A stretch of 64,000 nucleotides of DNA, from positions 173,557 to 237,556 of the forward strand of contig CALEIS010000135.1 in assembly GCA_937877675.1 (NCBI GenBank), in the 5' to 3' direction. This document shows, in pieces, positions 23,767 to 45,235 of this stretch. Below the pieces are notes generated by a model. It saw only the letters and a list, made by a program, of their open reading frames with translations, searched no databases and was not told the DNA's origin. Both the position numbers and the translations under genes were made by a program. The stretch comes from an uncultured Clostridia bacterium (GTDB lineage: Bacteria > Bacillota > Clostridia > Oscillospirales > Acutalibacteraceae). Position 1 is the first letter of the stretch; each line of letters opens with the position of its first letter.

Positions 23767-23783
23767 CACTTTTTTTGAAATAA

Positions 23784-23803: not shown

Positions 23804-23832
23804 TTGTAATCGCACGCAACAGGTCTTTTTAT

Positions 23833-23955: not shown

Positions 23956-23984
23956 AAGATTATTATACATCAGTTCTTTTTTCT

Positions 23985-25076: not shown

Positions 25077-25091
25077 ATAGGATACATAAAA

Positions 25092-25577: not shown

Positions 25578-25582
25578 AATCT

Positions 25583-25780: not shown

Positions 25781-25801
25781 AAGCTTTATCTTTCCACGAG
25801 A

Positions 25802-25830
25802 ATTATACACGAAATTCTAATTTAGGTCAA
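25802..25830 (-). promoter_or_regulatory. TTGACC-N17-TATAAT promoter cassette
   Basis: attata at 25802-07 and ggtcaa at 25825-30. Confidence 0.6.
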
Positions 25831-25836
25831 GACTTT

Positions 25837-26349: not shown

Positions 26350-26358
26350 AACACGGAC

Positions 26359-26387
26359 AAAATACACTAATCTGTAATTCAAGTCAA
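26359..26387 (-). promoter_or_regulatory. TTGACT-N17-TATTTT promoter cassette (degenerate copy)
   Basis: Same cassette context (caagtcaagactttttt) as the other copies. Confidence 0.45.
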
Positions 26388-27262
26388 GACTTTTTTACAA
26401 AATATTGAGAAAAATCTTTCACACAATTTACATCAACCATGTGACATTGACATTCGTAACCATCCATAGGAGTGATAGTGAATTCCAAGTTCTTATGATA
26501 ATGTCCCATGAACCAATGTTTAGGAGTAAGATAGCAAGCCATGTCTGTCAATTCCTCTTGTTCCCTGGCCAGGTCATTCTTCAATTCCTTATCCATCACT
26601 AGGAACTTATCACAGTTACTATTGAATACAATACCGTTGGGAATAGGGCCTGTGTGTCCAATAATGAAATCAAACTGATAAGAATTCTTATAATTATCCC
26701 AAGGGTCAATGTAATCAAAACTTGCCCAATAGTTCTGACCTTCCTTCATCAACATTCTGTTCAAGGAAATTGCACCACCAAATACAAAACCTCTATAACC
26801 TCTGTATTCAATAATTCCCTTGTTCATAGGGAAGATGGTAGTGAAATGTAAGGCATAGTATTCTTGTGTATGATAATAAGCACAATCATGATTACCTCTG
26901 ATAAAGTATGCTATGCAGTTTCGCTCCCTAAAAAGATTATCAAGTTTACGGTATTGTCTCCATGAATCATCATAGAGCATTACTTGGTCTCCAAGCATAA
27001 TGAAAACACAATCACGATAATCATTTTCGAGAAGTTCCTCTTTGAAGCGTTTGTAGTTACCATGCAAGTCTCCAACTAAGAAGATTTGCTTATCGTCAGG
27101 GATTGTGTATGTCAAGATATAATTATTTACATTATAAGCATCATTTATACCTACAATGTCAAACTCATCAACACTAATACAAGGTTTGGGTAACTCCTCT
27201 AAAGGAATTACCTTACCCAAGTGTTGCAAATCTCTCTTATAACTGTTCCAATCTATTAACAT
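26384..27262 (-). CDS. calcineurin-like metallophosphoesterase
   Basis: Motifs GDLHGN, GDQ, GNHD and GHYH. Confidence 0.75.
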   Translation of the reverse strand: MLIDWNSYKRDLQHLGKVIPLEELPKPCISVDEFDIVGINDAYNVNNYILTYTIPDDKQIFLVGDLHGNYKRFKEELLENDYRDCVFIMLGDQVMLYDDSWRQYRKLDNLFRERNCIAYFIRGNHDCAYYHTQEYYALHFTTIFPMNKGIIEYRGYRGFVFGGAISLNRMLMKEGQNYWASFDYIDPWDNYKNSYQFDFIIGHTGPIPNGIVFNSNCDKFLVMDKELKNDLAREQEELTDMACYLTPKHWFMGHYHKNLEFTITPMDGYECQCHMVDVNCVKDFSQYFVKKS

Positions 27263-27549
27263 TTTATCATCTTTACTGAGTTCATAGGAACACGTACTTT
27301 AGTTCCATCCTGAAGTTTTACGAGAACATGAGAAGCAGACCATTGCCAACTATCTACAAGTTCCACATTCTTTGCCACATTATCAGTCTCAATAATAGCA
27401 TACACAGGATAACCTTTACTTAAAGCACTCTTAGCACGTGCAAACAGTTCCAATGTATCGTAATCTACTTGATAATTATGTTTGAGTCTCTGTAAAACAT
27501 CCTTGTTGTTATCCATGATGTTATCAATTTCTTGCATGTAATCAGGCAT
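27256..27549 (-). CDS. hypothetical protein
   Basis: The ORF start was chosen at MPDYMQEID. Confidence 0.45.
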   Translation of the reverse strand: MPDYMQEIDNIMDNNKDVLQRLKHNYQVDYDTLELFARAKSALSKGYPVYAIIETDNVAKNVELVDSWQWSASHVLVKLQDGTKVRVPMNSVKMIKC

Positions 27550-27754
27550 TGTTTTCTTCCTTTCTATACTCATGGCAAACCAAATTTCCATTGTCAAATG
27601 TCATGTGTGAAATTTCGTGGTCTTCTGACTCCTCCCGCAACCAATGATTATCCCAATATATTAACTCAAATTCAAAACTCATCTTTTCGAGTTCTTCCTC
27701 AGTCTTACTATTGAGAAAATTACGCAGTTCTACTAAGTTTTCAATCATTTCCAT
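27542..27754 (-). CDS. hypothetical acidic protein
   Basis: The start was chosen at MEMIENL. Confidence 0.4.
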   Translation of the reverse strand: MEMIENLVELRNFLNSKTEEELEKMSFEFELIYWDNHWLREESEDHEISHMTFDNGNLVCHEYRKEENNA

Positions 27755-27758
27755 AATC

Positions 27759-28016
27759 TTATCCAATGTAATAGTTAGCCAACTCACGAAGTTTGGTAGC
27801 AAGTCCTTGCTCAGAACTAACTACGAACTCTACTCCTACAGCCACATCATACACAATGTAACCTTCATCCCGCCGATAGGATACCATTACCTCACCCTTG
27901 TGGAAAGTAGAGGAAAGCATAGCCTCCAAGTCATCCGTCTGTTCATAGACATCAAAACCGTTACGATAAGCATCCCTATGTACAATACTGTCAAAGTTGA
28001 TTCGATTCATGTTCAT
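27759..28016 (-). CDS. hypothetical protein
   Basis: First ATG downstream of the promoter (MNMNRINFDS). Confidence 0.45.
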   Translation of the reverse strand: MNMNRINFDSIVHRDAYRNGFDVYEQTDDLEAMLSSTFHKGEVMVSYRRDEGYIVYDVAVGVEFVVSSEQGLATKLRELANYYIG

Positions 28017-28044
28017 GTTTGTGTTCCTTTCTTTGTCCACGGAC

Positions 28045-28073
28045 ATTATACACGAATTTATAATCCAAGTCAA
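28045..28073 (-). promoter_or_regulatory. TTGACT-N17-TATAAT promoter cassette
   Basis: attata at 28045-50 and agtcaa at 28068-73. Confidence 0.65.
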
Positions 28074-28176
28074 GACTTTTTTGATAAAAATTCAAATAAA
28101 AATCCCTCATAGACGAAGAATTATCTATGAGGGATACTGATAGACTGTCGCTGGCACAGGCATCTATTAGATGAAA

Positions 28177-28247
28177 TAGTCTCGCAAGGACTCGAACCTT
28201 GTCAGAGGGAATCAAAATCCCTAGTGCTACCATTACACCACGAGACT
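28177..28247 (-). tRNA. tRNA-Gln(UUG)
   Basis: Acceptor agtctcg/cgagact. D arm gtgt-aatggta-gcac. Anticodon arm aggga-ttttgat-tccct. Confidence 0.8.
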
Positions 28248-28258
28248 ATGTTTAGAAG

Positions 28259-28330
28259 GGCGAAGTAAGGGAATTGAACCCTTCTAATCCGAACCACAAT
28301 CGGAGGTTTTACCACTAAACTAACTTCACC
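28259..28330 (-). tRNA. tRNA-His(GUG)
   Basis: Encoded G-1 opposite C73. Anticodon arm tccga-ttgtggt-tcgga. Confidence 0.8.
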
Positions 28331-28331
28331 A

Positions 28332-28517
28332 TTACTTTGTGGTTTGTTCTACAGGAATTTCAATGATGTCCTCAATTACATATACACCACATTCAGGCAT
28401 ATCTCTCAATTCAGGAGCACCTTGTTCACATATGCTTGTACAACATGATGTCAAAGCACACATAATTCCTACAATTGCCATGAAAATTAATACTACTAAA
28501 ATACCTGTCTTATCCAT
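28332..28517 (-). CDS. small membrane/lipoprotein-like protein
   Basis: 61 aa with a hydrophobic N-terminus ending ..ALTSC. Confidence 0.45.
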   Translation of the reverse strand: MDKTGILVVLIFMAIVGIMCALTSCCTSICEQGAPELRDMPECGVYVIEDIIEIPVEQTTK

Positions 28518-28522
28518 GATTG

Positions 28523-28700
28523 TTATTTACTTTTATTGAATGGTGCAACTCTTGCAATTGTAATTCTACAACCAACTTCAACAAAGTCTTTCAACATATC
28601 GGCAGGAATAACCACACCCTGATTTTTTACATATGCTTCATGTAGAAACTGATGGAGTGCATCATCACTTCTCAAATCGTAACTTGTAATCTCTTTCATG
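28523..28700 (-). CDS. hypothetical small protein
   Basis: The start was moved to MKEITSYDL, because the upstream part of the track ORF overlaps tRNA-Gly. Confidence 0.45.
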
Positions 28701-28729
28701 TTTATATTATAACTATGTTCTACAAAAAG

Positions 28730-28801
28730 AGCGGACGATGGGATTTGAACCCACGACATTCACCTTGGCAAGGTGACGCTCTACCGCTGAGCTACGTCCG
28801 C
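28730..28801 (-). tRNA. tRNA-Gly(GCC)
   Basis: gcggacg/cgtccgc. Anticodon arm tcacc-ttgccaa-ggtga. Confidence 0.85.
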
Positions 28802-28938
28802 AAAAAATTAAGGGGCTGACATCCACTTCGGACCGCCCCATGACTAAAAAATGTGTTCATTTTGCTTTCAGAGGGGAACACTCCTATAAAACCTCCCTAC
28901 GAACCTTGACTTCATGCAAGCCGTAGCAGCTCACAGGG

Positions 28939-28967
28939 ATTATACACGAATTTTCCATAATTGTCAA
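28939..28967 (-). promoter_or_regulatory. TTGACA-N17-TATAAT promoter cassette
   Basis: attata at 28939-44 and tgtcaa at 28962-67. A ~135-nt structured leader precedes tRNA-Gly. Confidence 0.7.
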
Positions 28968-28999
28968 GCAAATATTGAAACTTTTTTGAACTTTTTTTA

Positions 29000-29084
29000 C
29001 GGGTGCAGAGGGACTCGAACCCCCAAGGGCATCCCTGCCCCAGCAATTTTCAAGATTGTGTCTTCATCCAGCCAGATTACACCC
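29000..29084 (-). tRNA. tRNA-Ser(UGA)
   Basis: Type II. Loop cttgaaa. Long variable arm ctggggcagggatgcccttg. Confidence 0.75.
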
Positions 29085-29203
29085 TTTTTTCCTACCAACT
29101 GTTGTCAATAGGGGAACATTTTCTCCGTCACGGCTAAAACAGTTCCATTAAAGTCCGCATGATAGTTATCATGATTATAAGAGAAATAATTTCTCAAACC
29201 TAG

Positions 29204-29293
29204 CGGGTGGTGGAGGATTTGAACCTCCGAACCGTATTAACTACGATTAAAGTCTTAGCAGGACTCCGCATTCAGCCACTCTGCCAACCACCC
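29204..29293 (-). tRNA. tRNA-Ser(GCU)
   Basis: Type II. gggtggt/accaccc. Anticodon arm gagtc-ctgctaa-gactt. Confidence 0.8.
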
Positions 29294-29299
29294 GAATTC

Positions 29300-29386
29300 A
29301 AGACACAAGCGGTGGATTTGAACCACCTTTAATTTATGTAGTTGCAGTACATTATATTATCCATTTAGATTTGCTGTAAGTGTCTT
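29300..29386 (-). ncRNA. ACAGCAAAU-box RNA 1 (tRNA-like: anticodon-type hairpin + T arm, closed by 7-bp helix)
   Basis: aagacac-tt-ACAGCAAATCTAA...atgta-ctgcaac-tacat...ggtgg-ttcaaat-ccacc-gctt-gtgtctt. It starts 5 nt after tRNA-Asp. Confidence 0.55.
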
Positions 29387-29391
29387 TTGAA

Positions 29392-29465
29392 CGAAGACGA
29401 AGGGGCTTGAACCCTCAACCTCAGCCGTGACAGGGCTGCGCTCTAACCAATTGAGCTACGCCTCC
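29392..29465 (-). tRNA. tRNA-Asp(GUC)
   Basis: Anticodon arm cagcc-ctgtcac-ggctg. Canonical D and T arms. Confidence 0.8.
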
Positions 29466-29471
29466 AATAAC

Positions 29472-29577
29472 AAGGCTCTTTCACTAATGAGATAACCAAC
29501 TTCTCTATATTTTCAACCGAAAACAATTGGACTTGAACCAATGAACTTTAGCTATGCTAATTTGCTGTATGAGCCTT
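29472..29577 (-). ncRNA. ACAGCAAAU-box RNA 2: circularly permuted tRNA mimic (YrlA/Y-RNA-like)
   Basis: Order is: aaggctc-at-ACAGCAAA; hairpin ttagc-ata-gctaa; agttc; T arm attgg-ttcaagt-ccaat; acceptor-like hairpin tgttttc-ggtt-gaaaata; ta; D arm gaga-agttggtta-tctc; ...gagcctt. Confidence 0.6.
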
Positions 29578-29582
29578 TAGAA

Positions 29583-29655
29583 TGGAGCTGACAGGAATCG
29601 AACCTGCTACCCTCTGCGTGCAAAGCAGATGCTCTACCAAATGAGCTACAACCCC
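29583..29655 (-). tRNA. tRNA-Ala(UGC)
   Basis: G3:U70 is present. Anticodon arm tctgc-tttgcac-gcaga. Confidence 0.85.
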
Positions 29656-29807
29656 AAAATTAGGAACAACCCCCATTATTTAGGGGGCTGCACCTTTTTA
29701 TAAACAAACAAAACACGAACCACAATCATCAACACAATGACTATGGTGTTCCCATCGTTTCACAACGAGAGGTAAGGAGAGGGGGACTACCCCCTCTCTA
29801 AGATTAT

Positions 29808-31340
29808 TTAGTCAACAAGCGTAATGTCAGCATAACGCTTACCATTAAGAACCTGTAACATGAAGTCAGCAGGAGTCTTACCTGAGAGAATTTGCTCAAA
29901 CATACCAGGCTTACAACCACCAACAAGAATTGCACCGTACTGATGCTGAGTTACAGGAAGATTACCGTAATCACGCTGAGCTGCATTCCAGAATACCAAC
30001 TTAGGTACTCGATACCCTGCACAAGAATACATAGTTCTGATACGGTCATATGCTGCTTCATTATTACCACCATATACACAAGCATCAAACTGCATATCAG
30101 AGATAATCACGATTGCTTCAGGCATCTCCTCAGCAGGAAGATTATGTCTCTTTGCTGCATTGAGTACCAACTCAAAGGTAGCAATTAGATTTGTAGAACC
30201 ACCCCAATCAGCAGAAGCAATGTGCTGTACCTTCTTCTTAAGTCCCCACTTGTCATCAAATTCAATGAGATGAGGATTAGACTCAAATGTAATGAACTTA
30301 TTCTTGAACACTCCCTTGTTATGCTCAGACACATACATACCAAGTGAGATTGCTACACCAATAGGCTTAGGATTATCACCCCAAGTCATTGAACCTGAAG
30401 TATCTACTACTGCAAGCCAATTCTTATGTGCTGCATCTCCAAAGTAATCAGGGAGAGAACGCCACATGTTGTCAAGCTGCTTTTCCTCAGTCTTACCTAC
30501 AGAATAGTCAAAGAACTTATTGACAATCTCATAAGGATAGAGAGTCTTGACATTCACCTTTGCCTCCTTGCAGTTTACATCTCCACGCTCAATAGCCTTG
30601 GAAACTGCATCAATGTGAGCACGATAACGCTCACCGTCCTTCTCATGGAAGCACTTACGATACTTCATGTTGGCGTTAGAAGGAACTTCGTTATAGTCAA
30701 AGGTGTAATCCTTGTTCGTAAGATAAGTCTCAAGAATGTTGATACGCTTACGAAGCATGGAAAGCGTCTTACGGTAATGCTTTTCTGTTACTCCCAACTC
30801 CTTGCACAACATCTTACCATAAAGGCGAGTGCGCTTAGAAGAAGCATTTACGGAAGGAAGCCACTTAGCCATAATTGAGATAGGCTTATCAGACTTATAG
30901 TTAGTAATGTCTGACTTCAACTGTTCAACTATGAACTGAATAATCTGCTTGTCAAGGTCATCATGAACTCCAAACAAACAGAACAAATCATCCCATCGAC
31001 CATAAGTGGGAATGTGAGAGATGATGTTAGAGTTAATAAATGTCTTAGGCTCAAGTGTGGCTACCTCATGGATACCCTTGCGGAATACCTCACGCTCACC
31101 CTGTCCACCGTTGCCACGAACATCACGAAGATAGAACAAACAACGAACTGTGGACAACTTGTCCTCTAACCATGCACTCCTTACCATAGTACGAATCCCA
31201 TTAGGATTCTTACGATAAGAAGCACCCTTAGCGAATAAATCGAGAACTGAATTCAACGTAGACTTCCAAGCAGCCATGCCGTTTGTAGTCTCAGTCAAAT
31301 TATCCGTCTCCTTGATTGCATCAAATAATGCGTTTCCCAT
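29808..31340 (-). CDS. Ro60-like protein: DUF2828-type helical domain + C-terminal vWA with MIDAS
   Basis: The N-terminus TETTNGMAAWKSTLNSVLDLF...LFYLRDVRGNGGQGERE matches my recollection of DUF2828. The C-terminus has VVDTSGSM (DxSxS MIDAS). This is the same two-domain layout as Ro60/Rsr. Confidence 0.6.
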   Translation of the reverse strand: MGNALFDAIKETDNLTETTNGMAAWKSTLNSVLDLFAKGASYRKNPNGIRTMVRSAWLEDKLSTVRCLFYLRDVRGNGGQGEREVFRKGIHEVATLEPKTFINSNIISHIPTYGRWDDLFCLFGVHDDLDKQIIQFIVEQLKSDITNYKSDKPISIMAKWLPSVNASSKRTRLYGKMLCKELGVTEKHYRKTLSMLRKRINILETYLTNKDYTFDYNEVPSNANMKYRKCFHEKDGERYRAHIDAVSKAIERGDVNCKEAKVNVKTLYPYEIVNKFFDYSVGKTEEKQLDNMWRSLPDYFGDAAHKNWLAVVDTSGSMTWGDNPKPIGVAISLGMYVSEHNKGVFKNKFITFESNPHLIEFDDKWGLKKKVQHIASADWGGSTNLIATFELVLNAAKRHNLPAEEMPEAIVIISDMQFDACVYGGNNEAAYDRIRTMYSCAGYRVPKLVFWNAAQRDYGNLPVTQHQYGAILVGGCKPGMFEQILSGKTPADFMLQVLNGKRYADITLVD

Positions 31341-31376
31341 AATTATTCTTTCTATGTTTATTATTGATAAAAATGG

Positions 31377-31521
31377 TCAATTCATTCGCCCTTGTCAGGA
31401 TAACTCTTCATATTTGAACAAGTCACTTTTTCTCCACGTTTTATAACCCAAATATAATGTGATTAGATTTGCTGTATGTGACTTTTATTAGGAATTACCC
31501 TAACAAGGATGAATGAATTAA
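31377..31521 (-). ncRNA. ACAGCAAAU-box RNA 3: long 27-bp stem enclosing a 7-bp helix, box and Pro-like anticodon hairpin
   Basis: Outer arms 31377-31403 and 31495-31521. Four of the five non-identical columns are G:U pairs only in the minus-strand RNA. Inner element 31420-31484: aagtcac-at-ACAGCAAATCTAA..ttata-tttgggt-tataa..gtgactt. It lies in the 5' leader of the Ro-like gene. Confidence 0.55.
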
Positions 31522-31522
31522 C

Positions 31523-31660
31523 AAGACCCCATTATTACATTTTTACTGCGCTCTACCAACTGAGCTACTCCCATCATTGCAACAGGAGGCAGGACTCGAA
31601 CCTGCGACATCAGGCTTACAAGGCATATGTTATAATTGATTGATTTGCTGTGTGGGTCTT
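31523..31660 (-). ncRNA. ACAGCAAAU-box RNA 4: circularly permuted tRNA mimic (YrlA/Y-RNA-like)
   Basis: Order is: aagaccc-ac-ACAGCAAATCAA..; hairpin tatgc-cttgtaa-gcctg; atgtc; T arm gcagg-ttcgagt-cctgc; acceptor-like hairpin ctcctgt-tgcaatg-atgggag; ta; D arm gctc-agttggta-gagc; ...gggtctt. Confidence 0.6.
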
Positions 31661-31666
31661 TAAGAA

Positions 31667-31749
31667 TGGGAGCGGTTGGACTCGAACCAACGAAGACCGA
31701 AGTCAGGAGATTTACAGTCTCCCCCCTTTGCCGCTCGGGACACACTCCC
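31667..31749 (-). tRNA. tRNA-Tyr(GUA)
   Basis: Type II. Anticodon arm ggaga-ctgtaaa-tctcc. Confidence 0.8.
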
Positions 31750-31993
31750 AAGTTTGTAACTATCCCTCACCACAGGGAGAACCGTTTCATAAGTTCTTTA
31801 TCCTAGTTACTGAAGATTTAGATTACATCGTACATAGAAGTTTGACGTGGATGTAATCATCCCAATGAGTATGTTCCTTACTTGCCCCCTCATCGGTTAC
31901 TGGGGCGACTGCTCTTTATACATTATCAGGGGAAAGCAGAAAATCCTTTACTGATAAGGGATGAGTTGGTGGTGTCCTACTCATCACAGGAGA

Positions 31994-32065
31994 CAAGGCA
32001 TAGGGGAATTGAACCCCTGTTTAGGGAATGAAAATCCCTTGTCCTAACCACTAGACGAATGCCTC
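31994..32065 (-). tRNA. tRNA-Glu(UUC)
   Basis: gaggcat-tc-gtct-agtggtta-ggac. Anticodon arm aggga-ttttcat-tccct. 4-nt variable loop. Confidence 0.8.
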
Positions 32066-32141
32066 ATGTGTTTTTAACATCGCTGTCAATCTTCATTAGA
32101 GGGTTTTTATTTCCTCTTCACCTTTGGCAGGTGACAAGAAC

Positions 32142-32170
32142 ATTATACATCAGTTCTTTTCTTTTGTCAA
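32142..32170 (-). promoter_or_regulatory. TTGACA-N17-TATAAT promoter cassette
   Basis: attata at 32142-47 and tgtcaa at 32165-70. Confidence 0.7.
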
Positions 32171-32209
32171 GCACTTTTTGAAAGTTTTTTGAACTTTTTT
32201 CTTGAAAAA

Positions 32210-32281
32210 CACTCCATGCGGGATTTGAACCCACCTTCACGATTTTAGAGACCGTTGTCCTAACCACTAGACGAATGGAGC
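32210..32281 (-). tRNA. amber suppressor tRNA (anticodon CUA)
   Basis: gctccat-tc-gtct-agtggtta-ggac-a-acggt-CTCTAAA-atcgt-gaag-gtggg-ttcaaat-cccgc-atggagt-g. Canonical 7-nt loop with U33 and CUA at positions 34-36 (plus-strand tag at 32246-48). Confidence 0.8.
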
Positions 32282-32288
32282 ATGAAAG

Positions 32289-32362
32289 TAGCGGGGATAG
32301 GACTCGAACCTATGACTCCACGAATATGAATCGTGTGTTCTAACCAACTGAACTACCCAGCC
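32289..32362 (-). tRNA. tRNA-Met or Ile2 (CAU)
   Basis: Anticodon arm cacga-ttcatat-tcgtg. One U:C mismatch in the acceptor stem. Confidence 0.7.
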
Positions 32363-32509
32363 ATTTTGATACCGATAACGTGTTTCTCATTACACCATAC
32401 CCACGACCGTTTAGTACGTACTCTAAGTCTTGACAGGCACAGGGAATCTCACCCCAAACATCACCGATACTAGCAGAAATTTTGCGCTAAGGATTTCTGC
32501 AAACCTTAA

Positions 32510-32581
32510 TCAGGGAGGCGAGACTCGAACTCGCAACCACTTGAACCCAAATCAAGCACTCTACCATTGAGCTACACCCTG
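32510..32581 (-). tRNA. tRNA-Pro(UGG)
   Basis: C1:G72. Anticodon arm cttga-tttgggt-tcaag. Confidence 0.75.
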
Positions 32582-33023
32582 AACTGAGGTTCTCACTACC
32601 ACTCGGAGAACACCTAAGTCTGTACACAACCTAGGTACATTATGCTTCATTACTCATAATGAAACGCTTTTGAGCATGTGTGACTCTTGCACAGGTAGCA
32701 CGTTGTCTACCTCGTTTTATAAGACGATGCACATCTTCGTCTCCGTAGATACACATTTATTATCTTCGCACCTGTATCTCATTATCTAAGCCTGATAATG
32801 CCAATCATGAACTTTTGATTGCTATCGTACACCCTATTCAGGTGAGGACTTGGTGCAGCATCTCATGTTTAACTTCCATGAGAAGAATGATAGTTTTACT
32901 ACTGCTATACTATCCAAACAGGGAAGCTCAGGTATTGCCTACCAAGGTTACTTCTTACTGCGAACCTCATAAACAGTCTACTTAGTATGATGAGTGCTTA
33001 TCTCTCATCTTTCATAAGTGGAG

Positions 33024-33095
33024 TAGCCCCTGACAGACTCGAACTGCCGACCAATTCGGTGTAAACGAACCGCTCTACCACTGAGCTAAAGGGCC
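33024..33095 (-). tRNA. tRNA-Val(UAC)
   Basis: Anticodon arm gttcg-tttacac-cgaat. Confidence 0.8.
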
Positions 33096-33128
33096 GTATG
33101 TTGTAGTATTTATCCTCGCAACAAGTAT

Positions 33129-33157
33129 ATTATATCATAGTTCTTTTTACTTGGCAA
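33129..33157 (-). promoter_or_regulatory. TTGCCA-N17-TATAAT promoter cassette
   Basis: attata at 33129-34 and tggcaa at 33152-57. Confidence 0.65.
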
Positions 33158-33189
33158 GATTTTTTTCGTATATTTGTTTAGTTTTTTAC

Positions 33190-33261
33190 AAGACACCTTC
33201 AATCTAACCCTAGAATGACAATACTTTAGTCGGTGTAAATTTGATTTGCTGTATGTGCCTT
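33190..33261 (-). ncRNA. ACAGCAAAU-box RNA 5 (72 nt, 7-bp closing helix)
   Basis: aaggcac-at-ACAGCAAATCAAA....gtgtctt. It starts 5 nt after tRNA-Ile. The interior fold is unresolved. Confidence 0.45.
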
Positions 33262-33266
33262 TAGAA

Positions 33267-33340
<74 letters not shown>

Positions 33341-33347
33341 TTTGAAA

Positions 33348-33421
33348 TGCCACACCTAGGACTTGAACCTAGAACCTCATCATTAAGAGTGATTTGCTCT
33401 AACCATTTGAGCTAGTGAGGC
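33348..33421 (-). tRNA. tRNA-Lys(CUU)
   Basis: Loop ctcttaa. One acceptor mismatch. Confidence 0.7.
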
Positions 33422-33422
33422 T

Positions 33423-33899
33423 TTATAATTTATTGACATCAAGTAATCCATAATGAGCTTCTCTATGACAGTTTGCACATAAAAGAACACATTTGGATAC
33501 TTCATCATTTATAGTATCCATTGAAAGTTGACCAAGTTTTGCTATATTCAATTCAAAACTTTTTTCATCAGGGTTTTTATGATGAAATTCCAATGCTTGA
33601 GGACAACGGTTGTAACCACATGCCATACATTTACCGCCAAACTTGGTATCAATTATTTGTTGTTTGCGTTCTCTTGCACGATTACGATTACTTACAGTTA
33701 TTCGCTTATTTCTTTTTTTACGAAGAAATTCTTTTTCTTCCTCCGTATAATCTTTTACATTGAAAGGTCTATATTTAGTTTTCAATCCATATTTTCCTAA
33801 CCAATGACGAACCGAACTAAAACTTTTATCAAGTTCTTTACAGATGTCACGGATAGAAAGATTCTTGTCAATTAGTTTTTGTAATTCTTCTCGTTCCAT
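33423..33899 (-). CDS. HNH homing endonuclease with N-terminal HTH
   Basis: LEFHHKNPDEKSFELN...LLCANCHREAHYG. Confidence 0.8.
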   Translation of the reverse strand: MEREELQKLIDKNLSIRDICKELDKSFSSVRHWLGKYGLKTKYRPFNVKDYTEEEKEFLRKKRNKRITVSNRNRARERKQQIIDTKFGGKCMACGYNRCPQALEFHHKNPDEKSFELNIAKLGQLSMDTINDEVSKCVLLCANCHREAHYGLLDVNKL

Positions 33900-33952
33900 A
33901 TCTTTATTTAGTTCACTTTACAAATAAAGGAGAGATTTTATTACTGATTTAG

Positions 33953-34026
33953 TGGTAAAGGGTGGAATCGAACCACCGACACCAACATTTTCAGTGTTGT
34001 GCTACTACCGACTGAGCTACTTTACC
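33953..34026 (-). tRNA. tRNA-Phe(GAA)
   Basis: Anticodon arm caaca-ctgaaaa-tgttg. Confidence 0.85.
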
Positions 34027-34031
34027 AATTA

Positions 34032-34105
34032 TAGGACCGCACAGACTTGAACTGTGAACCTAAGGATTATGAGTCCTCCGCTCTAACCGATTGAGCTACA
34101 ATCCC
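34032..34105 (-). tRNA. tRNA-Ile2 (CAU, lysidine-type) or Met
   Basis: Loop ctcataa. The 5' acceptor and D arm (gggattgtagctca) match tRNA-Ile(GAU). Confidence 0.7.
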
Positions 34106-34115
34106 ATATAAAGAA

Positions 34116-34188
34116 TAGGTGCTATGGGATTTGAACCCATGACCAACAGATTAAAAGTCTGCTGCTCTACCGACTGAGCTAAACACCC
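34116..34188 (-). tRNA. tRNA-Lys(UUU)
   Basis: Anticodon arm gcaga-cttttaa-tctgt. Confidence 0.8.
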
Positions 34189-34197
34189 TTTGTGAAA

Positions 34198-34269
34198 CGT
34201 CCTCGGCAGGATTTGAACCTGCGACCCCATGCTTAGAAGGCACGTGCTCTATCCGCTGAGCTACAAGGA
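34198..34269 (-). tRNA. tRNA-Arg(UCU)
   Basis: Anticodon arm cgtgc-cttctaa-gcatg. Confidence 0.8.
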
Positions 34270-34330
34270 CTTATGCGGTAATTGATAACCCACAATTACC
34301 AAAGGGTTGATGATAAATCAAGCAAGAAGA

Positions 34331-34401
34331 CAGGCTGACAAGGACTCGAACCCTGATAAACGGTTTTGGAGACCGTCATTCTACCATTGAATTATCAGCC
34401 T
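34331..34401 (-). tRNA. tRNA-Trp(CCA)
   Basis: Anticodon arm acggt-ctccaaa-accgt. Confidence 0.8.
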
Positions 34402-34634
34402 AGAATAATCATCATAACCTCGTCTCGTATGATGGTATCAATTAGCATCCCCCAAAGTAATAAAATAGATGCTAATTGATTTTTGAGCATGACGGTTTCT
34501 TTTCAAGTGCCACTACCGACAAACACTCCTGAGAGACCTTATTACTGATGGCAGTCATGGTAGGAAATAAAGAAAAACTACCATGAAAGCGGTTTACCAT
34601 CTAATGCAAAGACCTCTAATTGTCATGAAACAAA

Positions 34635-34704
34635 TACGGATAGTGAGAATCGAACTCACAACTAAAGATTGGAAATCTCCTATTTTACCACTAAACTATA
34701 TCCG
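34635..34704 (-). tRNA. tRNA-Gly(UCC)
   Basis: Anticodon arm ggaga-tttccaa-tcttt. Confidence 0.75.
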
Positions 34705-34712
34705 CATGAGAG

Positions 34713-34785
34713 TACACGAAGTAAGACTTGAACTCACAACCCCTTCGTCCGTAGCGAAGTGCTCTATCCATTGAGCTATTCGTGC
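34713..34785 (-). tRNA. tRNA-Arg(ACG)
   Basis: Anticodon arm cttcg-ctacgga-cgaag. Confidence 0.8.
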
Positions 34786-34896
34786 ATTTGTAGTGGTATT
34801 ACCCTGCCACTACTCAGGTTAGAAAGGAGGAGCATCACCTCAATGCCCCAATGAACAACAAATATCAGAACACCGTTTTACGTCTGGCAGACAAAG

Positions 34897-34980
34897 TACG
34901 GAGAACAGGACTCGAACCTGCACGAGATTTCTCTCATAACATCCTTAGTGTTACGTGACTACCAATTCCACCATCTCCGC
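34897..34980 (-). tRNA. tRNA-Leu(AAG)
   Basis: Type II. Anticodon arm taaca-ctaagga-tgtta. Confidence 0.7.
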
Positions 34981-35334
34981 ATTAAGGGGTGGTTTCCCAC
35001 CCCAATTATTGATAGAAAGCAAAAATATGAATAACATTCATGACATCAAAACGTAGGCGGCTTGCAATTCTGTCTATCGCTTGCCATTTTACTGTTTGGT
35101 CAAACTGTCATTCGGATACAACCCCTAGCCTCGTGTATCCCATAGGGTTTCACAACCTCCTATAGAGCAAGACAGTTTATAAAAAAACTGACAAAATTAT
35201 GACAAAATGAAAATACAATAGTAAATCCTGACTTATTATCTCCACCGTCAGAATAGCGCAGAACAACCTTTTAGCAGGAGGATGTAACCTATACTTTGAT
35301 TATGAATACCCACCACAACAACCGTATGATAGAA

Positions 35335-35405
35335 AATCCATGAACGGAATCGAACCGTTACCTCCCCCAAGCACTAAGGGGGCTTGCCCATTACACCACA
35401 TGGAT
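35335..35405 (-). tRNA. tRNA-like gene with 9-nt anticodon loop
   Basis: Perfect acceptor atccatg/catggat. T arm aacgg-ttcgatt-ccgtt. The anticodon arm is ccccc-ttagtgctt-ggggg. Confidence 0.35.
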
Positions 35406-35679
35406 ACCTTCGACCTGAGGTTAATTACTCCTCCAGCCTATTTTCATGAAAAATTGTCGGAAGGATTGTTACCTGCAACCCTTCGCTTAGGTAGTGATTC
35501 TCACCCGCAGAGCGTCCCCTGCGAATTACCAGTCAGAGAGAACCGTTGCCTACCTGATAGTTCCTTATTTTCCTAGGTTGGAAAGGAACTAACAACCTAA
35601 CCAAAAGCGAATTATCGTAGTCGCTAAACACACGGCTCTTATTTTTTACTTCCTCAAGTCGTTGGAAATTTTGAGAACA

Positions 35680-35759
35680 AAATGTAGGAAGGACTTGAAC
35701 CTTCACGGGATTTCAACCCCACCCTTTAACGGCGCGTCTACCATTCCACCACTCACATT
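35680..35759 (-). tRNA. degenerate type II tRNA-Leu(UAA)-like gene
   Basis: T arm gaagg-ttcaagt-ccttc. D loop ggaatggtag. 4-bp anticodon stem with loop gttaaag. Imperfect acceptor. Confidence 0.35.
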
Positions 35760-36007
35760 CATTCTCTTATAAAATCAGATGAATAATTTTGTTATAGTTT
35801 ATAATTACACATCCGATTAGAATTGTTCAATTATTATAACGCTGATACATTCAGGAGTCGAACCTGACCATTGGATAGATTGCAGTCTATCGCCCTCCGA
35901 TACGTCCCTCCCAAAGTGGGTACTTTCTTATCGGCATTACCTCATTATGAAGGGGTTTGCGACCCAAGGTATCGGCTACATACATAATGAGTTTGTTATT
36001 GAACGAA

Positions 36008-36079
36008 AGGTTCGGGTCGGATTTGAACCAACGCATGAGAGATTTGCAGTCACTTGCCTTACCACTTGGCTACCGAACC
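36008..36079 (-). tRNA. tRNA-Cys(GCA)
   Basis: ggttcgg/ccgaacc. Loop ctgcaaa, with one stem mismatch. Confidence 0.7.
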
Positions 36080-37076: not shown

Positions 37077-37757
37077 TTATTTTCCAAATTTTTTCTATAA
37101 AATTGGCAACATCATCTTTCTTGCTCTAATTACATCACTCTCAGTAACGTCATCATGTAAGCCAAATCTTTCTCTTACCCACTCTTTATTCTCTTCAATC
37201 CACTGTTCTATAACATTCCAAACTTCTTTACCACTCAATGCAAACTGATTCTCTAAATCTGCTTCTAATTCCCATGCGAGTTCAAGACAGAATTCTTCAA
37301 GAGTTTTTCTATCGTCATAATGAGCACTTATAGCACCACTGAAATCATACTCATCACCACCATCTACTCTACCACTTGAATATGCTTCACCTAATGTAGC
37401 CTTATCTTTCGTTTGAGAAGCAGCAGCGATAACACCCTTAGCAAAATCTTCTTGGTCTTGTGGAGTAGTAGAACCACTCATTTGCTTCTGACGAATTTGG
37501 TCAGCACGGTTGAATAATGCTTGTCTAGTACCATCGTCAATGTCTTGTGGAGCATTGAAGTATACATAATTCATTACATCCTTATCTTCTAATCCATCTA
37601 CATCTTTCTCTTGAAGAGTTGGTGTAGCATTAGCAACAAGGTCTGTATCCTGAGCAATATCTTCCGTAGTTTCTTCCTGTGTATCTACATTACCAGGGAC
37701 AGTGGCAGGTTGCATAATTGCTTCCTCATTTATAAATCTTACTCTAAAGCGTTTCAT
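37077..37757 (-). CDS. acidic head-module protein (unknown role)
   Basis: 220-aa ORF ending at TAG (37095-97). TAA follows 5 codons later. It lies directly downstream of the capsid gene. Confidence 0.6.
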
Positions 37758-37833: not shown

Positions 37834-39981
37834 TTAGGCGTTATGATTCCAAACAGAACCTTCAGCAGGAGTTACTGTTACAGCAGTAGGAGCAGTAACC
37901 TGTACAGCAGGGCTGATTGGGAATGCATAGGAAGGAGCAGTACCAGTGGTTTCTGCATGAGCAGCATAACCGTTAGGATACATCTTATTGTCGTTCTGAA
38001 CACCAGGGTTGGAGAAGTCGTCAATAAGGATTACATGGTAGTAGAGGTGAGAACCGAAGATATTGTCCATTACACCGTAACGAGTCATAAGACCTACGTG
38101 TGGTGAGAAGGAGTTAGTATCGGTTGCAGTCTGAACCATGATAGGAATGTATGGGCAGTAAATGATACCTGCATCATACGTATCAGCACCCTTATAACCA
38201 AGCATACAATAGTTAGGAAGTTTAACTTCCTGCTCAGTTGTGTCGAACATATCGCCATAACCCATACCGTAGTCATCAGTGCTGTAAACGGCAGTTCTCT
38301 CATCAATGTAAACATTGAACTTGTTACCACCAAGAGTACCAGCAGCAGCGGTCTGAGCATTGTTAAGCTCGATGGTGTTGTTTACCTGCATAGGAACATA
38401 GTCCTCAAGCATCTGAAGAAGAGCAGCAACGTCAGGAGTACATACGATGAAGTTAGCAGCACCACGGTGGTTGCGAACACGCATTCTCATAGCCATCTTG
38501 ATAATGAACTGATAGAATGCACGAGCACGCTCACCCATCCAACGAGCGTCAGCGAGCTTACCAGACCATACAGACCATTCATTGTGCTTGAGAGCTGTGA
38601 AGAGCATACGAACAGTCATTTCACGGTCGATTTCAGCCTGAAGCTCATAGCTCATCTGCTGAGTAGCTTCGGTGTCGATGTCAATACCGTTGGTGTTCTT
38701 GAGGTCTTCCTGAGTTTCAAGTGTCCAAGAGGTTGAAAGTCTACGAGTACCAGCTTCAACAGCCTGCTTCTCGAAACCGAAGGAGGTACGAGCGATAGCA
38801 CCAGTAGCTTCAAAAGCATGAACGCGAGCAGCGATACCAGTATCCTCAAGACGGAACTGCCAACGACCACCTGCAAGAGGCTGGAGGAGTTGCTTGTCCT
38901 GAGCACCTGTGAAGCGGGTATCAAGACGCTGATAACCCATTTCAGAGTTACCCAAGTCCCACTTACCAGTTACTTCATTGAACTTGATGTCAGAAATCTG
39001 AACGTCACCCTTAGCAGGGTCAGAGATACCAACAATCTTAGTACCATCTGTAGCATCCTCTACACGCTTTTCAGCAGCAGTCTAAATTTTGTCAAGAAGT
39101 TCTGTCTCGGATGAATCAACACCACGCTGAGCAGCAACAACAACAGCTTCCTTAATCTTGGCTTCTGTGATGGTTGTAAGTGTAGCATAATCAACTTCAC
39201 CAATAATCTGTGTAAGAACAGGGTGAACGATGTACTTCTTATTCTTTTCAGAAGCAGCCTTTGTACTTACGAAAGCAGGGTTTGCAACGATTGCAGGGAA
39301 ACTCTGTGGGAAACCATTACCAACAACAGTTACAAGAGTAGCACTACCTTCGGCTGTTGAAGTAGCGTCAGTAATAGTAAGCTTAGCCTTGGTCTCTACA
39401 CCACGGATACCCTGAGCGGTATACTCAGTAGCAGCAGAACCATTGTATACAGTATCACGCTGAGCATATTCAGTTGTTTCACCAGAAACACGAGGACTGT
39501 GAACGTGCTCTGTGGAGCTGTCACCAAGAGCGTTAGCACCCTTGAGGTAACGATAACGGATAGCGAATGCAAGAGCTACAGGGCCAGGCATAGGCTGAAC
39601 ACCAACCGTTTCATTGCTCATAAGAGCAGGATAGATACGGCGAACCATAGGAAGAATAGTCGTTGGGTTACGCATGTCACCAGGAGCATAGAAGTCACTG
39701 TTGCCAAGCTCACCACCGTGAAGACCATTCTGAGGACCGAACATAGCGGTTGTCATTGCAGGACTGTTCTCATTGAGCCAACGCATCTGGTTCTCAAGAA
39801 GCATAGCGGTGTTGTTACGAACAGCCTTGGAGCGAATAGGAGCGAAACCAGCAGTACACTCAAGAAGCTCAGACCAGTTCTTTACTGCCTTGCGAGTACG
39901 CTGACCATTTTTCTGCGTCTGGGTAAGGCGAGCCTTAGGAGCAGCCTGTGCAGTACGCTTTGTTTTAGTAATAATAGCCAT
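37834..39981 (-). CDS. major capsid protein, T4 gp23-like, with one in-frame TAG
   Basis: Track ORFs 39082..39981 and 37834..38955 share a frame. They are joined through TAG 39082-84 with no other stop (..ELLDKI*TAAEKRVED..). The N-terminal part has gp23-type motifs LLENQ..WL, PMVRRIYPALMSNETVGVQPMPGPVALAFAIRY. Confidence 0.75.
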
Positions 39982-40024: not shown

Positions 40025-41080
40025 TTATCCCTCAAAATTATCTTCCCAATTCTTTACGAGCTTAGTAAGCCATGAGTTATTGGATTCATTGAGGGGCTTC
40101 TTAGAAGATTTTTCAATAGCAGGTTTTTTACCTTCTGTCATAATTCTGCTCAATTCCTTACGAGAATGTGCAGCGATTTGCTGACTCTTTGAATTAGCAC
40201 GTGTTCTCTCAGCTAATACAGCATTCTCCTTGAGATTGTTTGTGCGATACTGCTTTACAGTATATTCAAAGTTATCCTTGATGAACTGCAAGGAAGCCTT
40301 CTCCAATACACGCTCTACAAACATTCTCTGGTCTTTTGAGGGAATCTCAGCCAATCTCTTAGCAAGATATGCCTTGCGTTCAGCTTCAGCAATAACTGCC
40401 TTAGCCTCTGCAAGTTCTGCCTTGAGTGACTCATTTTCCTCATTGAGAGAACTGATTTCCTTCTTACCATTCTCGATACGATTATATGCTTCGAGAATAG
40501 GACGCTTGAGTGCTTCACTGTTGTAAACTTCCTCAAAATTAAGGAGTTGCTTGAAGGATTCAAGGAGTTCAATAGCCTTGGTGTTCTTTACAGCAGACTG
40601 AATCTGCTCATAAGGAATGCACTTATCAACATTCTCTACGATAAACTTACCAAGTTCCTTAGTAATGCTCTCACGGAATGACTCTGCTTCCTGAGCAGCT
40701 TTCACTTCGTAAGACTCCTTGAGAGTAGCAATAGCCTTGTTGGCATTCTCTCTCATCTCATTGATACGCTTTACAGCCTTAGCCTTTACAGCAGACATCT
40801 CTGCCTGATGATTTTCATTGAGCTTGTTTACAACCTTTACGAGATTGATTTTAGCATTCTCATCAAGTTTAGTAACAAGTTTCTGCATTCTCTCTGTAAG
40901 AGCGGCATCCAATGATACCTCAGCGGATTTAACAGCGGTAGCAATCTGCTCACTTACCTTGCTTTCAACCAACTTATCGAAAGCTTCCTGAAGAGTAGCG
41001 AGACCAGTCTCACTAACTGCTTCAAGTAACTCCTTGGGAAGCAAGTCCTTTACATTTACAGATGTGTCGTTATTATCCAT
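40025..41080 (-). CDS. prohead scaffolding protein (coiled coil)
   Basis: 351-aa Ala/Glu/Lys-rich helical protein between the protease and capsid genes, the same position as gp22 in T4. Confidence 0.65.
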   Translation of the reverse strand: MDNNDTSVNVKDLLPKELLEAVSETGLATLQEAFDKLVESKVSEQIATAVKSAEVSLDAALTERMQKLVTKLDENAKINLVKVVNKLNENHQAEMSAVKAKAVKRINEMRENANKAIATLKESYEVKAAQEAESFRESITKELGKFIVENVDKCIPYEQIQSAVKNTKAIELLESFKQLLNFEEVYNSEALKRPILEAYNRIENGKKEISSLNEENESLKAELAEAKAVIAEAERKAYLAKRLAEIPSKDQRMFVERVLEKASLQFIKDNFEYTVKQYRTNNLKENAVLAERTRANSKSQQIAAHSRKELSRIMTEGKKPAIEKSSKKPLNESNNSWLTKLVKNWEDNFEG

Positions 41081-41310: not shown

Positions 41311-41982
41311 TTACATTTTCTTCATGAAATCCATAACAGCACCTAAAAGATACTTCTCTACATCCTTCTTAGGAAGTTTAGCCAACTTCTTATCAAAGCT
41401 CTCATACTGCTCTACGTACTTCTCATTGTAGTTACAAATCCAATCTTTACTTTCAAGAATACCATTTACGAATGCTTTCTGACAAGAAGGGTCATGAACA
41501 ATGTCAAATGTGCAAAGTTGGAAATCTGTTACAATACCTGTGCTCTCATCCAAACATCCAAGTGAACGAGAAGAAACACCTAATTGTACACCGTCTCTCA
41601 AAAGGCTTTCTACAATCTTACCTGTAGGTGTGCTCAAAATCTTGGACTTACCATAGAATACATTACCATCCTGCTTGAGAGAAGTAATAAGGTGACATGC
41701 CTTTTCAGCATTCAAGTTAGGATACTCAGGATGTTCCAATTCACCTGTTGCTCTGTGTTGAAGAACGAACTTCTCATTGAACTCATTAATCTGCTGTACC
41801 ATCTCATCAAGAGGATAGATACGATTATTACGGTTACGACTGTTAGCCTCTGTGAATGGGCCTTCAATATAATATCTCTTTTCTTTTGAACCGTCAGGCA
41901 TTTCTACACTCTCATTGAGGAATGAGAATTCATGTCTGTCTTTAGGTTCTTCTACGATAAGTTTCAAACTTTTAGTAATCAT
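41311..41982 (-). CDS. prohead core protease (T4 gp21-like)
   Basis: NRNNRIYP...ATGELEHPE matches gp21-family signature regions. Synteny with scaffold and capsid genes. Confidence 0.7.
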   Translation of the reverse strand: MITKSLKLIVEEPKDRHEFSFLNESVEMPDGSKEKRYYIEGPFTEANSRNRNNRIYPLDEMVQQINEFNEKFVLQHRATGELEHPEYPNLNAEKACHLITSLKQDGNVFYGKSKILSTPTGKIVESLLRDGVQLGVSSRSLGCLDESTGIVTDFQLCTFDIVHDPSCQKAFVNGILESKDWICNYNEKYVEQYESFDKKLAKLPKKDVEKYLLGAVMDFMKKM

Positions 41983-44269: not shown

Positions 44270-44740
44270 TTAGTCAACGATGCTAATAAAGTTATTACGC
44301 TTTTTAACAAGCCACTGTTTTTCTTTCATGTCGTATACAGCACATGACTTAGAATTAAGTGTGTTTCCTGAGTATGCCCATACCCAAATTCTTCTACCAC
44401 CTGTTGCAGCACTTGAAATTTCAAGTCTATATCTTCTGCCATCTGGAGTATTTCTGTATTCACCGTAACTATATTCACGACCGTTAGACTTACACAATGA
44501 TAAGAGGTCATTTATTGAAAATTGTTCTCTTTGAAGTGGAGCTTTACGAACAGGCTTACTTGTTACTTCTGCATCTCTCATCTACAAACCATAATTCTCA
44601 AGCAAATACTTGGCAGCTTCTTTCAATACATTTCTCATTGATAACTCAGACTTGGACTTTACTACCAAGTTCTTCTGAGGAAGTACACTCTCATTGAGTC
44701 TTCCACTTACTTTCTTAATCTTTACATTATACTCAAACAT
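44270..44740 (-). CDS. MFEYNV-family protein (paralogue 1) with TAG at the N-domain/C-domain junction
   Basis: MFEYNVKIKKVSGRLNESVLPQKNLVVKSK...ENYGL*MRDAEV... TAG at 44582-84. Both track ORFs are in the same frame. Confidence 0.6.
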
Positions 44741-44770
44741 ACGTATTCTTTTATTTATAAATAATTTCAC

Positions 44771-45235
44771 ATGGGTTCTCTCAATCTCAATAGAAATACA
44801 AATTATAAGCAAGGATTCTTTTATCCAAGAAATTTAGACAAGTTCGTTGGTAAAGAAAACAAAGCAATATATCGTAGTGGCTTAGAATTAGAATACTTTA
44901 GAATCCTTGACAAAAACCCTAATGTTTTGAAATGGGGTAGTGAAGAAGTGGTTGTACCTTACTTCTTTGAAAACAAATGGCACAAGTATTACGTAGACCT
45001 TTTTGTTGTATTCAAGTTTGGTGAATCAGTGAAGAAATACTTTATTGAACTTAAACCTTACTCACAGACGGTAGAACCAAAGGTGTCTAAAAGAAAGAAG
45101 CAAATGAGTATGTTGTATGAGGCTAAGCAGTGGGCAAAGAACCAAGCCAAGTGGAAAGCAGCCACAGATTACGCTAAAAAGAATGGATGGGAGTTTCACA
45201 TTCTTACTGAAAAAGACCTAGAGAATAGGAAATGA
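44771..45235 (+). CDS. TnsA-N/PD-(D/E)xK-like nuclease-fold protein
   Basis: YRSGLELEYFRILD...YYVDLFV...IELKP pattern. Confidence 0.45.
   Translation: MGSLNLNRNTNYKQGFFYPRNLDKFVGKENKAIYRSGLELEYFRILDKNPNVLKWGSEEVVVPYFFENKWHKYYVDLFVVFKFGESVKKYFIELKPYSQTVEPKVSKRKKQMSMLYEAKQWAKNQAKWKAATDYAKKNGWEFHILTEKDLENRK

Follow-up and report, generated by a model that had tools for sequence, protein, structure and literature searches.

A single in-frame TAG in a gp23-family capsid gene and a tRNA-Glu-like suppressor in a phage clade that reads TAG as sense

The subject of this analysis is a 64,000-nucleotide stretch of contig CALEIS010000135.1 (hereafter the window), which carries the gene of a gp23-family major capsid protein (37834..39981, minus strand). 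The gene comprises 715 codons, ends in TAA, and contains one in-frame TAG at codon 300 (39082..39084, minus strand; context AAA ATT TAG ACT). Under the standard code it falls into two open reading frames (ORFs) in the same frame, one of 299 amino acids (aa) starting at ATG (39082..39981) and one of 373 aa starting at TTG (37834..38955), and the 42 codons linking the TAG to the downstream TTG are free of stops. Our translation confirms this split, which an initial annotation of the sequence had reported. Counted as open codons, the two ORFs measure 306 and 415 and form the window's largest same-frame pair split by one stop. A pair of this size is beyond chance.

The two ORFs are one capsid gene, with homology on both sides of the TAG. 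The Pfam family Gp23 (PF07068) matches the upstream piece over profile positions 7-121 (54.1 bits) and the downstream piece over positions 125-358 (197.9 bits), both above the curated cut-off of 24.4 bits. PHROG 138, "major head protein", is divided likewise, with positions 4-143 in the upstream piece and 150-415 in the downstream piece. The initial annotation had placed the gp23 N-terminal part before the TAG and the rest after it, and had named capsid homologues split at this point as evidence against a single gene. A search of ~5.8 billion proteins returns 3248 matches; among the best 120 of them none is split at the TAG site, each being one unsplit protein of 624-740 aa. The closest homologue among the matches listed, P0001 (95% identity over 100% of the length, 714 aa, found on two contigs), aligns across the TAG site unbroken (ELLGKIQTAAEKRV in P0001, ELLDKI*TAAEKRV in the window). 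The DNA encoding P0001 in the sister genomes L001 and L002, which like the other relatives with L numbers are drawn from ENA/Logan assemblies, reads AAG ATT CAG ACT. The residue of the nearest relative at codon 300 is therefore glutamine (Gln), and the window differs from its sister at this codon by a single C-to-T change. All seven capsid genes of relatives fetched as DNA translate without a TAG.

An insertion of ~170 aa, which separates Gp23 profile position 121 from position 125, contains the TAG. The insertion spans approximately residues 165-330 (38992..39489, minus strand), as judged from the profile coordinates and the clade alignment. Its columns are unalignable between lineages and have no clade-wide consensus, in contrast to a nearly invariant core. 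The AlphaFold2 model of P0001, built from a 38-sequence alignment, has a mean predicted local distance difference test (pLDDT) score of 39 and is unusable. The TAG is absent from the 95%-identical sister, is positioned in a variable insertion, and interrupts a gene whose listed homologues are all single, which together suggest a recent substitution in a TAG-reassigned genome rather than a conserved switch. The substitution is probably both recent and unselected. The two standard-code ORFs and the possible TTG start could alternatively mean that the capsid is assembled from two polypeptides of 299 and about 373-415 aa. However, no listed homologue is split here, the 42 stop-free codons match the sister's protein, and a break at this point would split a single Gp23 profile inside the insertion domain, so that we consider two co-assembling polypeptides extremely improbable. 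Full-length capsid protein needs the TAG to be read as sense.

The window as a whole uses TAG in this way. With gene calls from a crude gene caller, 68 in-frame TAGs are spread over 13 of the 64 genes (52 of the 68 are in three genes at 58.5-64 kilobases (kb)), and TAA is the terminator in 51 of the 64. The next in-frame stop after an apparent terminator follows at a median of 60.5 codons for TAG (n=14), compared with 6 for TAA (n=46) and 5 for TGA (n=15), and each apparent TAG terminator is followed either by a long open frame or by TAA or more TAGs within 0-17 codons. Taking TAG as sense raises the coding coverage from 71.6% to 78.2% with the same crude caller. The G+C content is 36.9%. In the gene just downstream of the capsid gene (37077..37757, minus strand), the TAG at 37095-97 looks like a stop but aligns with AAG in L003-5, and reading through it gives the 226-aa length of the relatives' protein. 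Relatives also carry TAG within several genes (those of the prohead protease, the scaffold, a TnsA-like endonuclease, NrdD, and a methylase), and other genomes encode an amino acid at the corresponding positions. We conclude that this phage clade uses TAG as a sense codon, and the dependence of the capsid on a suppressor, although real, is common to a dozen other genes.

As a lone C-to-T change relative to the sister genome, seen in a metagenome-type assembly, the TAG could also be a true nonsense mutation in a defective genome, or a sequencing or assembly error, in which case no full-length capsid would come from this template. Against this stand dozens of in-frame TAGs conserved in relatives and a cognate suppressor tRNA. 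Given genome-wide conserved TAGs and a suppressor, the capsid TAG needs no special explanation; a nonsense mutation or error is very improbable, and the codon is almost certainly decoded as sense.

The suppressor tRNA, with anticodon CUA and an ordinary cloverleaf, is encoded at 32209-32282, or more narrowly 32210-32281 (minus strand; Rfam tRNA, 55.6 bits), ~5.5 kb downstream of the capsid gene. The initial annotation had made full-length capsid depend on such a tRNA. It belongs to an array of 29-30 tRNA genes (20804..36079, minus strand) directly downstream of the head genes and on the same strand. The phage's tRNA-Glu gene (anticodon UUC; 31992..32066, minus strand), ~140 nucleotides downstream of the suppressor, is its presumed parent. 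The suppressor is 69% identical to this tRNA-Glu and 53% identical to the phage tRNA-Gln, and its 23-nucleotide D-arm is identical to that of tRNA-Glu. The suppressor and tRNA-Glu align without gaps and have in common G1.U72, the D-stem GUCU/GGAC (U11-A24, U13.G22), and a 4-nucleotide variable loop. Compensatory changes are found in 9 of 21 base pairs across the suppressors of the window, L001, and L015 and two tRNA-Glu genes. The suppressor is therefore a paralogue of the phage's own tRNA-Glu, a duplicate with a changed anticodon. The ARAGORN label "tRNA-Pyl" is only that program's name for a CUA anticodon and was set aside, the body being tRNA-Glu-like and the cloverleaf ordinary. The D-stem with U11-A24 and U13.G22 and the 4-nucleotide variable loop are reportedly identity elements of the glutamyl-tRNA synthetase of E. 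coli. An E. coli tRNA-Glu body with a CUA anticodon is likewise said to be chargeable and to suppress UAG, and engineered tRNA-Glu amber suppressors reportedly insert mainly glutamate (Glu) and some Gln, which is a lead for ambiguous decoding and no test of it. Which synthetase would charge the suppressor, which residue would be inserted, and how efficiently decoding would compete with host release factor 1 (RF1) are points on which the sequence speaks indirectly.

The clade has two types of tRNA(CUA), which are non-homologous, and each stretch examined carries one type only. The Glu-like type lies between tRNA-Met and tRNA-Glu in the window, in L001 (18109-18182), and in L015 (16206-16278). 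The other type, whose D-arm resembles that of tRNA-Gln, is flanked by tRNA-Gly(GCC) and tRNA-His/Gln in L003 (21033-21106), L004 (21958-22031), and L005 (19799-19872).

TAG is concentrated in a module of three minus-strand genes at the end of the window. Gene gC (58469..61723) has 1084 codons between TAA/TGA stops and 32 in-frame TAGs; with only TAA and TGA as stops, its frame (58469..61732) is open for 1087 codons with the same 32 TAGs. Gene gB (61737..62870) has 377 codons and 15 TAGs, in a frame (61737..62888) that is open for 383 codons when stops are counted in the same way. Gene gA (62873..64000) runs past the window end and shows 5 TAGs in the 375 codons seen. The ratio TAG/(TAG+GAA+GAG) is 0.34 in the module and 0.015 elsewhere in the window. 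The TAGs are retained in relatives: 30 of the 32 in gC are still TAG in the sister L008 at 2.4% nucleotide divergence, and the L010 orthologues of the module genes contain 32, 29, and 79 TAGs, 7-8% of codons, without any other stop. None of the three genes has a Pfam or PHROG match. The module adjoins NrdD and DNA-methylase genes. It is conserved in the window, L008, L010, L012, L013, and L026, with TAG making up 3-8% of codons, and its proteins diverge fast, being 30-50% identical between lineages whose capsid proteins are ~77-80% identical. The module may encode host-interaction or fibre proteins. By contrast with gC, a BspA-type leucine-rich-repeat protein of 1283 aa (1672-5523, plus strand) has no TAG.

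In these TAG-dense genes, TAG evolves like a Glu codon. Over four lineages, gA contains 5, 32, 0, and 19 TAGs, 32, 12, 37, and 19 Glu codons, and 8, 6, 9, and 7 Gln codons. The sum of TAG and Glu in the orthologues is near constant (37, 44, 38, and 37) and Gln stays flat at 6-9; the Glu count, unlike the Gln count, drops as TAG increases. When TAG is masked, TAG columns pair with Glu in 18.2% and with Gln in 4.2% of cases. The corresponding values in the comparison columns of the same genes are 19.5% and 3.5% for true Glu and 9.1% and 14.2% for true Gln. The Glu-like pairing is repeated in each of the four lineages taken singly. A column-likelihood score over 254 TAG columns is 204.6 for Glu and 92.2 for Gln, and Glu wins 1000 of 1000 bootstraps. 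A TAG variant is found in 16 of the 18 conserved-Glu columns. TAG partners are often GAA, which is two steps from TAG and is expected under long-term synonymous exchange of Glu codons. The partner comparison uses score-filtered gene calls; an all-frame ORF comparison for TAG partners was abandoned, as it was swamped by shadow frames.

Several observations weigh against glutamate. The only alignable relatives of the capsid site carry Gln (CAG). In conserved genes outside the module, TAG takes the place of fully conserved Gln and fully conserved Glu with about equal frequency, at 8 of 181 columns of the former and 8 of 480 of the latter. The partners in the window's own lineage are mixed, with Gln at about four sites (codon 300 and three more), Glu at four, and Lys at one or two. 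The Glu signal comes mostly from three fast-evolving genes that align at 30-50% identity. The window covers 64 kb of a genome of ~250 kb, and the rest could encode a second suppressor, a release factor, or a synthetase. In addition, a CUA anticodon is one step from that of tRNA-Gln as well, and glutaminyl-tRNA synthetase tends to accept CUA anticodons and mischarges CUA suppressors in E. coli.

These points bear on the possibility of ordinary recoding under translation table 15, with TAG read as Gln genome-wide and the capsid TAG a synonymous CAG-to-TAG change. The sister's CAG at the capsid site agrees with such recoding, as does the presence of TAG, in some genomes, at fully conserved Gln columns of NrdD, a methylase, and other genes. 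The same is true of three neighbouring genes of L003 (protease, scaffold, and TnsA-like; L003 7480-9954), which contain TAG where L004 has CAA, CAG, and CAA. L003 and L004 have identical capsid proteins and only ~10 codon differences per gene in this region. At two of the three sites the codons differ by two bases, and the distant L016 also has the protease TAG, which suggests that the pattern is an old polymorphism or the product of recombination and not of fresh mutation. In published recoded phages, moreover, TAG "aligned best with glutamine", and Gln at TAG is reported as validated by proteomics in crAss-like phages (PMC9523058). However, the suppressor here is a paralogue of tRNA-Glu and not of tRNA-Gln. 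In the TAG-dense genes, furthermore, TAG displaces Glu and not Gln, TAG columns pair with Gln no more often than true Glu columns do, every bootstrap prefers Glu, and many partners are GAA, two steps away. We therefore regard table 15 recoding as possible but doubtful. For the residue itself, the sequence comparisons would put mainly Glu at about even odds; Gln would be distinctly less probable, and a Glu/Gln mixture somewhat less so again.

Stored protein sequences do not help in this choice. The protein P0121 has Gln at 31 of 32 TAG positions and was dropped as evidence for Gln, because its DNA has TAG at 30 of them and the database had put Gln for TAG. The locus DNA of several contigs did not translate to the stored proteins, which shows that the database had used TAG as Gln. 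A stored Gln at a TAG is thus an assumption, and inferring the residue by homology from such databases is circular. Storage is inconsistent within the clade: some contigs are stored with TAG as Gln (P0121, P0125, P0127, and P0128, from loci L008 and L010-L014), and others, such as L003, under the standard code with the genes split. Alignments to solved structures are uninformative about the relatives' TAG sites: the residue in T4 gp21 is Thr, in a variable position, and for NrdD the aligned region begins only past the TAG.

The sites in conserved genes differ between lineages. TAG is found at Glu-type sites in L013/14 (three), L010/L016/L017 (four, with one Gln-type site), and L026 (two). Gln-type sites are found in L003/L025 (five, with one Glu-type site) and also in L020, L021, L024, L018, L019, L023, and L002. 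L003/L025 is the one lineage known to have the different, Gln-like suppressor, and its TAG sites are mostly Gln-type; its TAG-dense genes are outside the ortholog groups, which leaves only 9 sites for that lineage. The Gln-leaning L019 and L020 comprise one contig that stops 3 kb past the capsid gene and one without a tRNA array nearby. The meaning of TAG may vary between lineages, Glu or Gln according to the suppressor carried. Alternatively, decoding may be ambiguous between Glu and Gln, or the genomes may carry both suppressors, outside the stretches seen. In its most specific form, TAG would be Glu through the duplicated tRNA-Glu(CUA) here and Gln in the related lineage with the Gln-like tRNA, whose capsid protein is 79% identical, the meaning being set by the suppressor; we advance this form only tentatively.

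The initial annotation had further proposed that the single amber codon acts as a switch, delaying full-length capsid until the suppressor tRNA, and any interference with the host release factor, is in place. The dependence on the suppressor holds, and late-gene gating by recoded stops has been proposed for other phages (Borges et al., 10.1101/2021.08.26.457843). A selected switch of this kind, working until the suppressor accumulates or host RF1 is neutralised, would also fit the tRNA array lying directly downstream on the same strand and the TAGs in the protease, scaffold, and TnsA-like genes of L003. It would fit the sequence context as well, the base 3' of the in-frame TAGs being A or G in 46 of 68 cases compared with T after 29 of the 51 TAA stops. 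The single amber switch, by contrast, is not supported. The site is one of 68 TAGs in 13 of 64 genes, is not kept even in the 95%-identical sister, is uninterrupted in the listed homologues, and is located in the least constrained part of the protein. The genes expected to be TAG-rich under late-gene gating are not so in this genome: the endolysin (45251-46036), the prohead protease, and the scaffold have no TAG and the capsid has one. TAG density is highest in three genes of unassigned function beside nucleotide-metabolism genes; NrdD in the window has no TAG. One TAG in 715 codons of the presumed most abundant virion protein looks like avoidance, not use. We consider a selected switch at the capsid TAG improbable. 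Late-gene gating is not required genome-wide, though it may operate, and codon 300 is not singled out. No release-factor or release-factor-interfering gene turned up among the ~30 window proteins scanned against Pfam or PHROGs. With 4 matches in the window against 5.8 expected, the T4 late-promoter motif TATAAATA is not enriched and gives no timing information.

Our favoured reading is that of a TAG-reassigned phage in which the capsid TAG is recent and the inserted residue is most likely Glu or possibly a Glu/Gln mixture, and we give it a probability of roughly 60% as a whole. The source would be a T4-like phage, uncultivated and with a genome of ~250 kb, whose clade would have an anaerobic host, probably one of the gut. 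Its own tRNA(CUA), the tRNA-Glu duplicate in the array downstream of the head genes, would read codon 300, and the ribosome would make one gp23-type capsid protein of 715 aa. Codon 300 would have arisen by a recent CAG-to-TAG single-base change in a fast-evolving surface insertion, tolerated because TAG was already decoded genome-wide, and would be no conserved timing switch. The inserted residue would most likely be Glu, possibly a Glu/Gln mixture, and not the Gln of translation table 15.

The capsid TAG taken alone is the expected outcome of a known phenomenon. TAG-reassigned gut phages ("genetic code 15") include crAss-like, Lak, and Jade/Sapphire/Agate phages (Ivanova 2014; Borges et al., 10.1101/2021.08.26.457843; Peters et al., PMC9523058; PMC13037316), and a jumbo-phage survey reports a TAG-split Portal_GP20, a T4-type head gene (PMC13037316). 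Like these, the phage of the window has in-frame TAGs with two-sided homology, a phage tRNA(CUA), and a low G+C content (36.9%); its TAG use is uneven between genes, near relatives differ in which genes carry TAG, and the hosts probably use the standard code. Unlike them, its suppressor is a tRNA-Glu paralogue and TAG is Glu-like in the TAG-dense genes. Its TAGs are also concentrated in a single module of three genes, where they account for 3-8% of codons; outside it the codon is almost missing, and the endolysin has none. The nuclear codes of peritrich ciliates and Blastocrithidia (tables 30 and 31) offer a parallel, in that a former stop, one base from GAG, is read by a suppressor derived from tRNA-Glu. 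In those eukaryotic nuclear codes both UAA and UAG are reassigned; here the genome is viral, only TAG is affected, TAA is the main terminator, and Glu is inferred. A full-text literature search of incomplete coverage found UAG-to-Glu only in ciliates and a trypanosomatid, and no phage report.

What is new is a suppressor that is a tRNA-Glu paralogue, TAG that is Glu-like where it is commonest, and mainly Gln-type sites in related genomes that have a different suppressor. If this reading is correct, TAG as glutamate would be a code so far undescribed for any virus or bacterium, and pipelines that apply table 15 to every TAG-recoded phage would mistranslate as many as 3-8% of the residues in some proteins. 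The clade would also offer a natural system in which the meaning of a codon shifts between near relatives. The path of reassignment would be testable, from tRNA duplication through anticodon change to spread, with fast-evolving genes first. The amino acid encoded by the capsid TAG is the question that deserves follow-up.

The neighbourhood of the capsid gene is of the T4 type. Beside it are a scaffold-position gene of 351 aa, assigned by its position in the head-gene order (40025..41080, minus strand), and the prohead protease (41311..41982, minus strand; Peptidase_S77 / PHROG 207). The scaffold orthologue of L003 has a TAG at codon 92, that of L016 has one at a different site, and the protease orthologues in L003 and L016 contain in-frame TAGs. 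The Pfam and PHROG matches and the order S77 protease, small gene, scaffold, capsid are as for T4 gp23/gp24 (PF07068; HK97 fold with insertion domain); the ~170-aa lineage-variable insertion, the in-frame TAG, and the ~29% identity to cultured T4-like phages set the protein apart. The clade is absent from GenBank phages, where the best capsid match is at 29% identity, to T4-like cyanophages. In IMG/VR, a single-protein search with the capsid protein finds none close, and an alignment search finds two distant loci at 63-64%.

The NrdD gene suggests an anaerobic host. A NrdD homologue, P0217 (69% identity), is encoded on a 251-kb contig labelled "MAG: Lachnospiraceae bacterium" (MAG, metagenome-assembled genome). 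The contig is as long as the genomes of these phages; it may be phage DNA that was binned with a bacterial MAG, and it hints at the host. Many NrdD genes of the clade (homologues P0140-P0253) contain inteins or insertions (800-1121 aa, PF14890).

TAGs are also found in other genes of the window. A 501-codon gene (15219..16724, plus strand) has two, at 15516-18 and 16245-47, the second of which is crossed by a repeat motif, IT-x-xxxMF. Two glycosyltransferase-like genes (5617..7520, minus strand) have TAGs at 5740-42, 6256-58, and 7131-33. In a 180-codon gene (44270..44812, minus strand), the TAG at 44582-84 corresponds to a Glu codon (GAA or GAG) in relatives, and a 205-codon gene (51500..52117, minus strand) has one (51812-14) in common with L004. 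The last two genes have paralogous N-terminal domains (MFEYxVxIxKVSGxLxESVLPxKNLVVKSKS...), and in each the TAG follows that domain. A 148-codon gene (57534..57980, plus strand) has one TAG (57732-34) in common with L008, where most relatives have CAA or CAG. A gene with 5 TAGs at 7850-8521 (plus strand) overlaps a rival minus-strand ORF at 7526-8131, and its reality is uncertain.

The tRNA array contains further elements. An Rfam tRNA match at 20804-20878 (minus strand, 47.9 bits) is not called by ARAGORN. A gene of 510 aa with DUF2828/DUF7788/vWA matches and no TAG (29808-31340, minus strand) lies in the middle of the array, and its position there is conserved in most of the array-bearing relatives that were fetched (L001, L003-L005, and L015). 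A DUF559/restriction-endonuclease-like (REase-like) gene (21066-21860, minus strand) and an HNH-endonuclease-like gene (22716-23477, minus strand) inside the array probably encode homing endonucleases. The window is also rich in DNA-modification genes on the minus strand (9484-12652, 48337-50024, and 54687-55466). Besides three N6_N4 methylases in tandem and one more of that type, they comprise a Mom-like gene, an EcoRI-type methylase, and a radical-SAM gene. Relatives have additional DNA-modification-related genes (MT-A70, D12, and ArdA). In L029, a 355-kb relative, an IS605 OrfB/TnpB (Cas12f-like) gene (5038-6315) is inserted beside the head genes.

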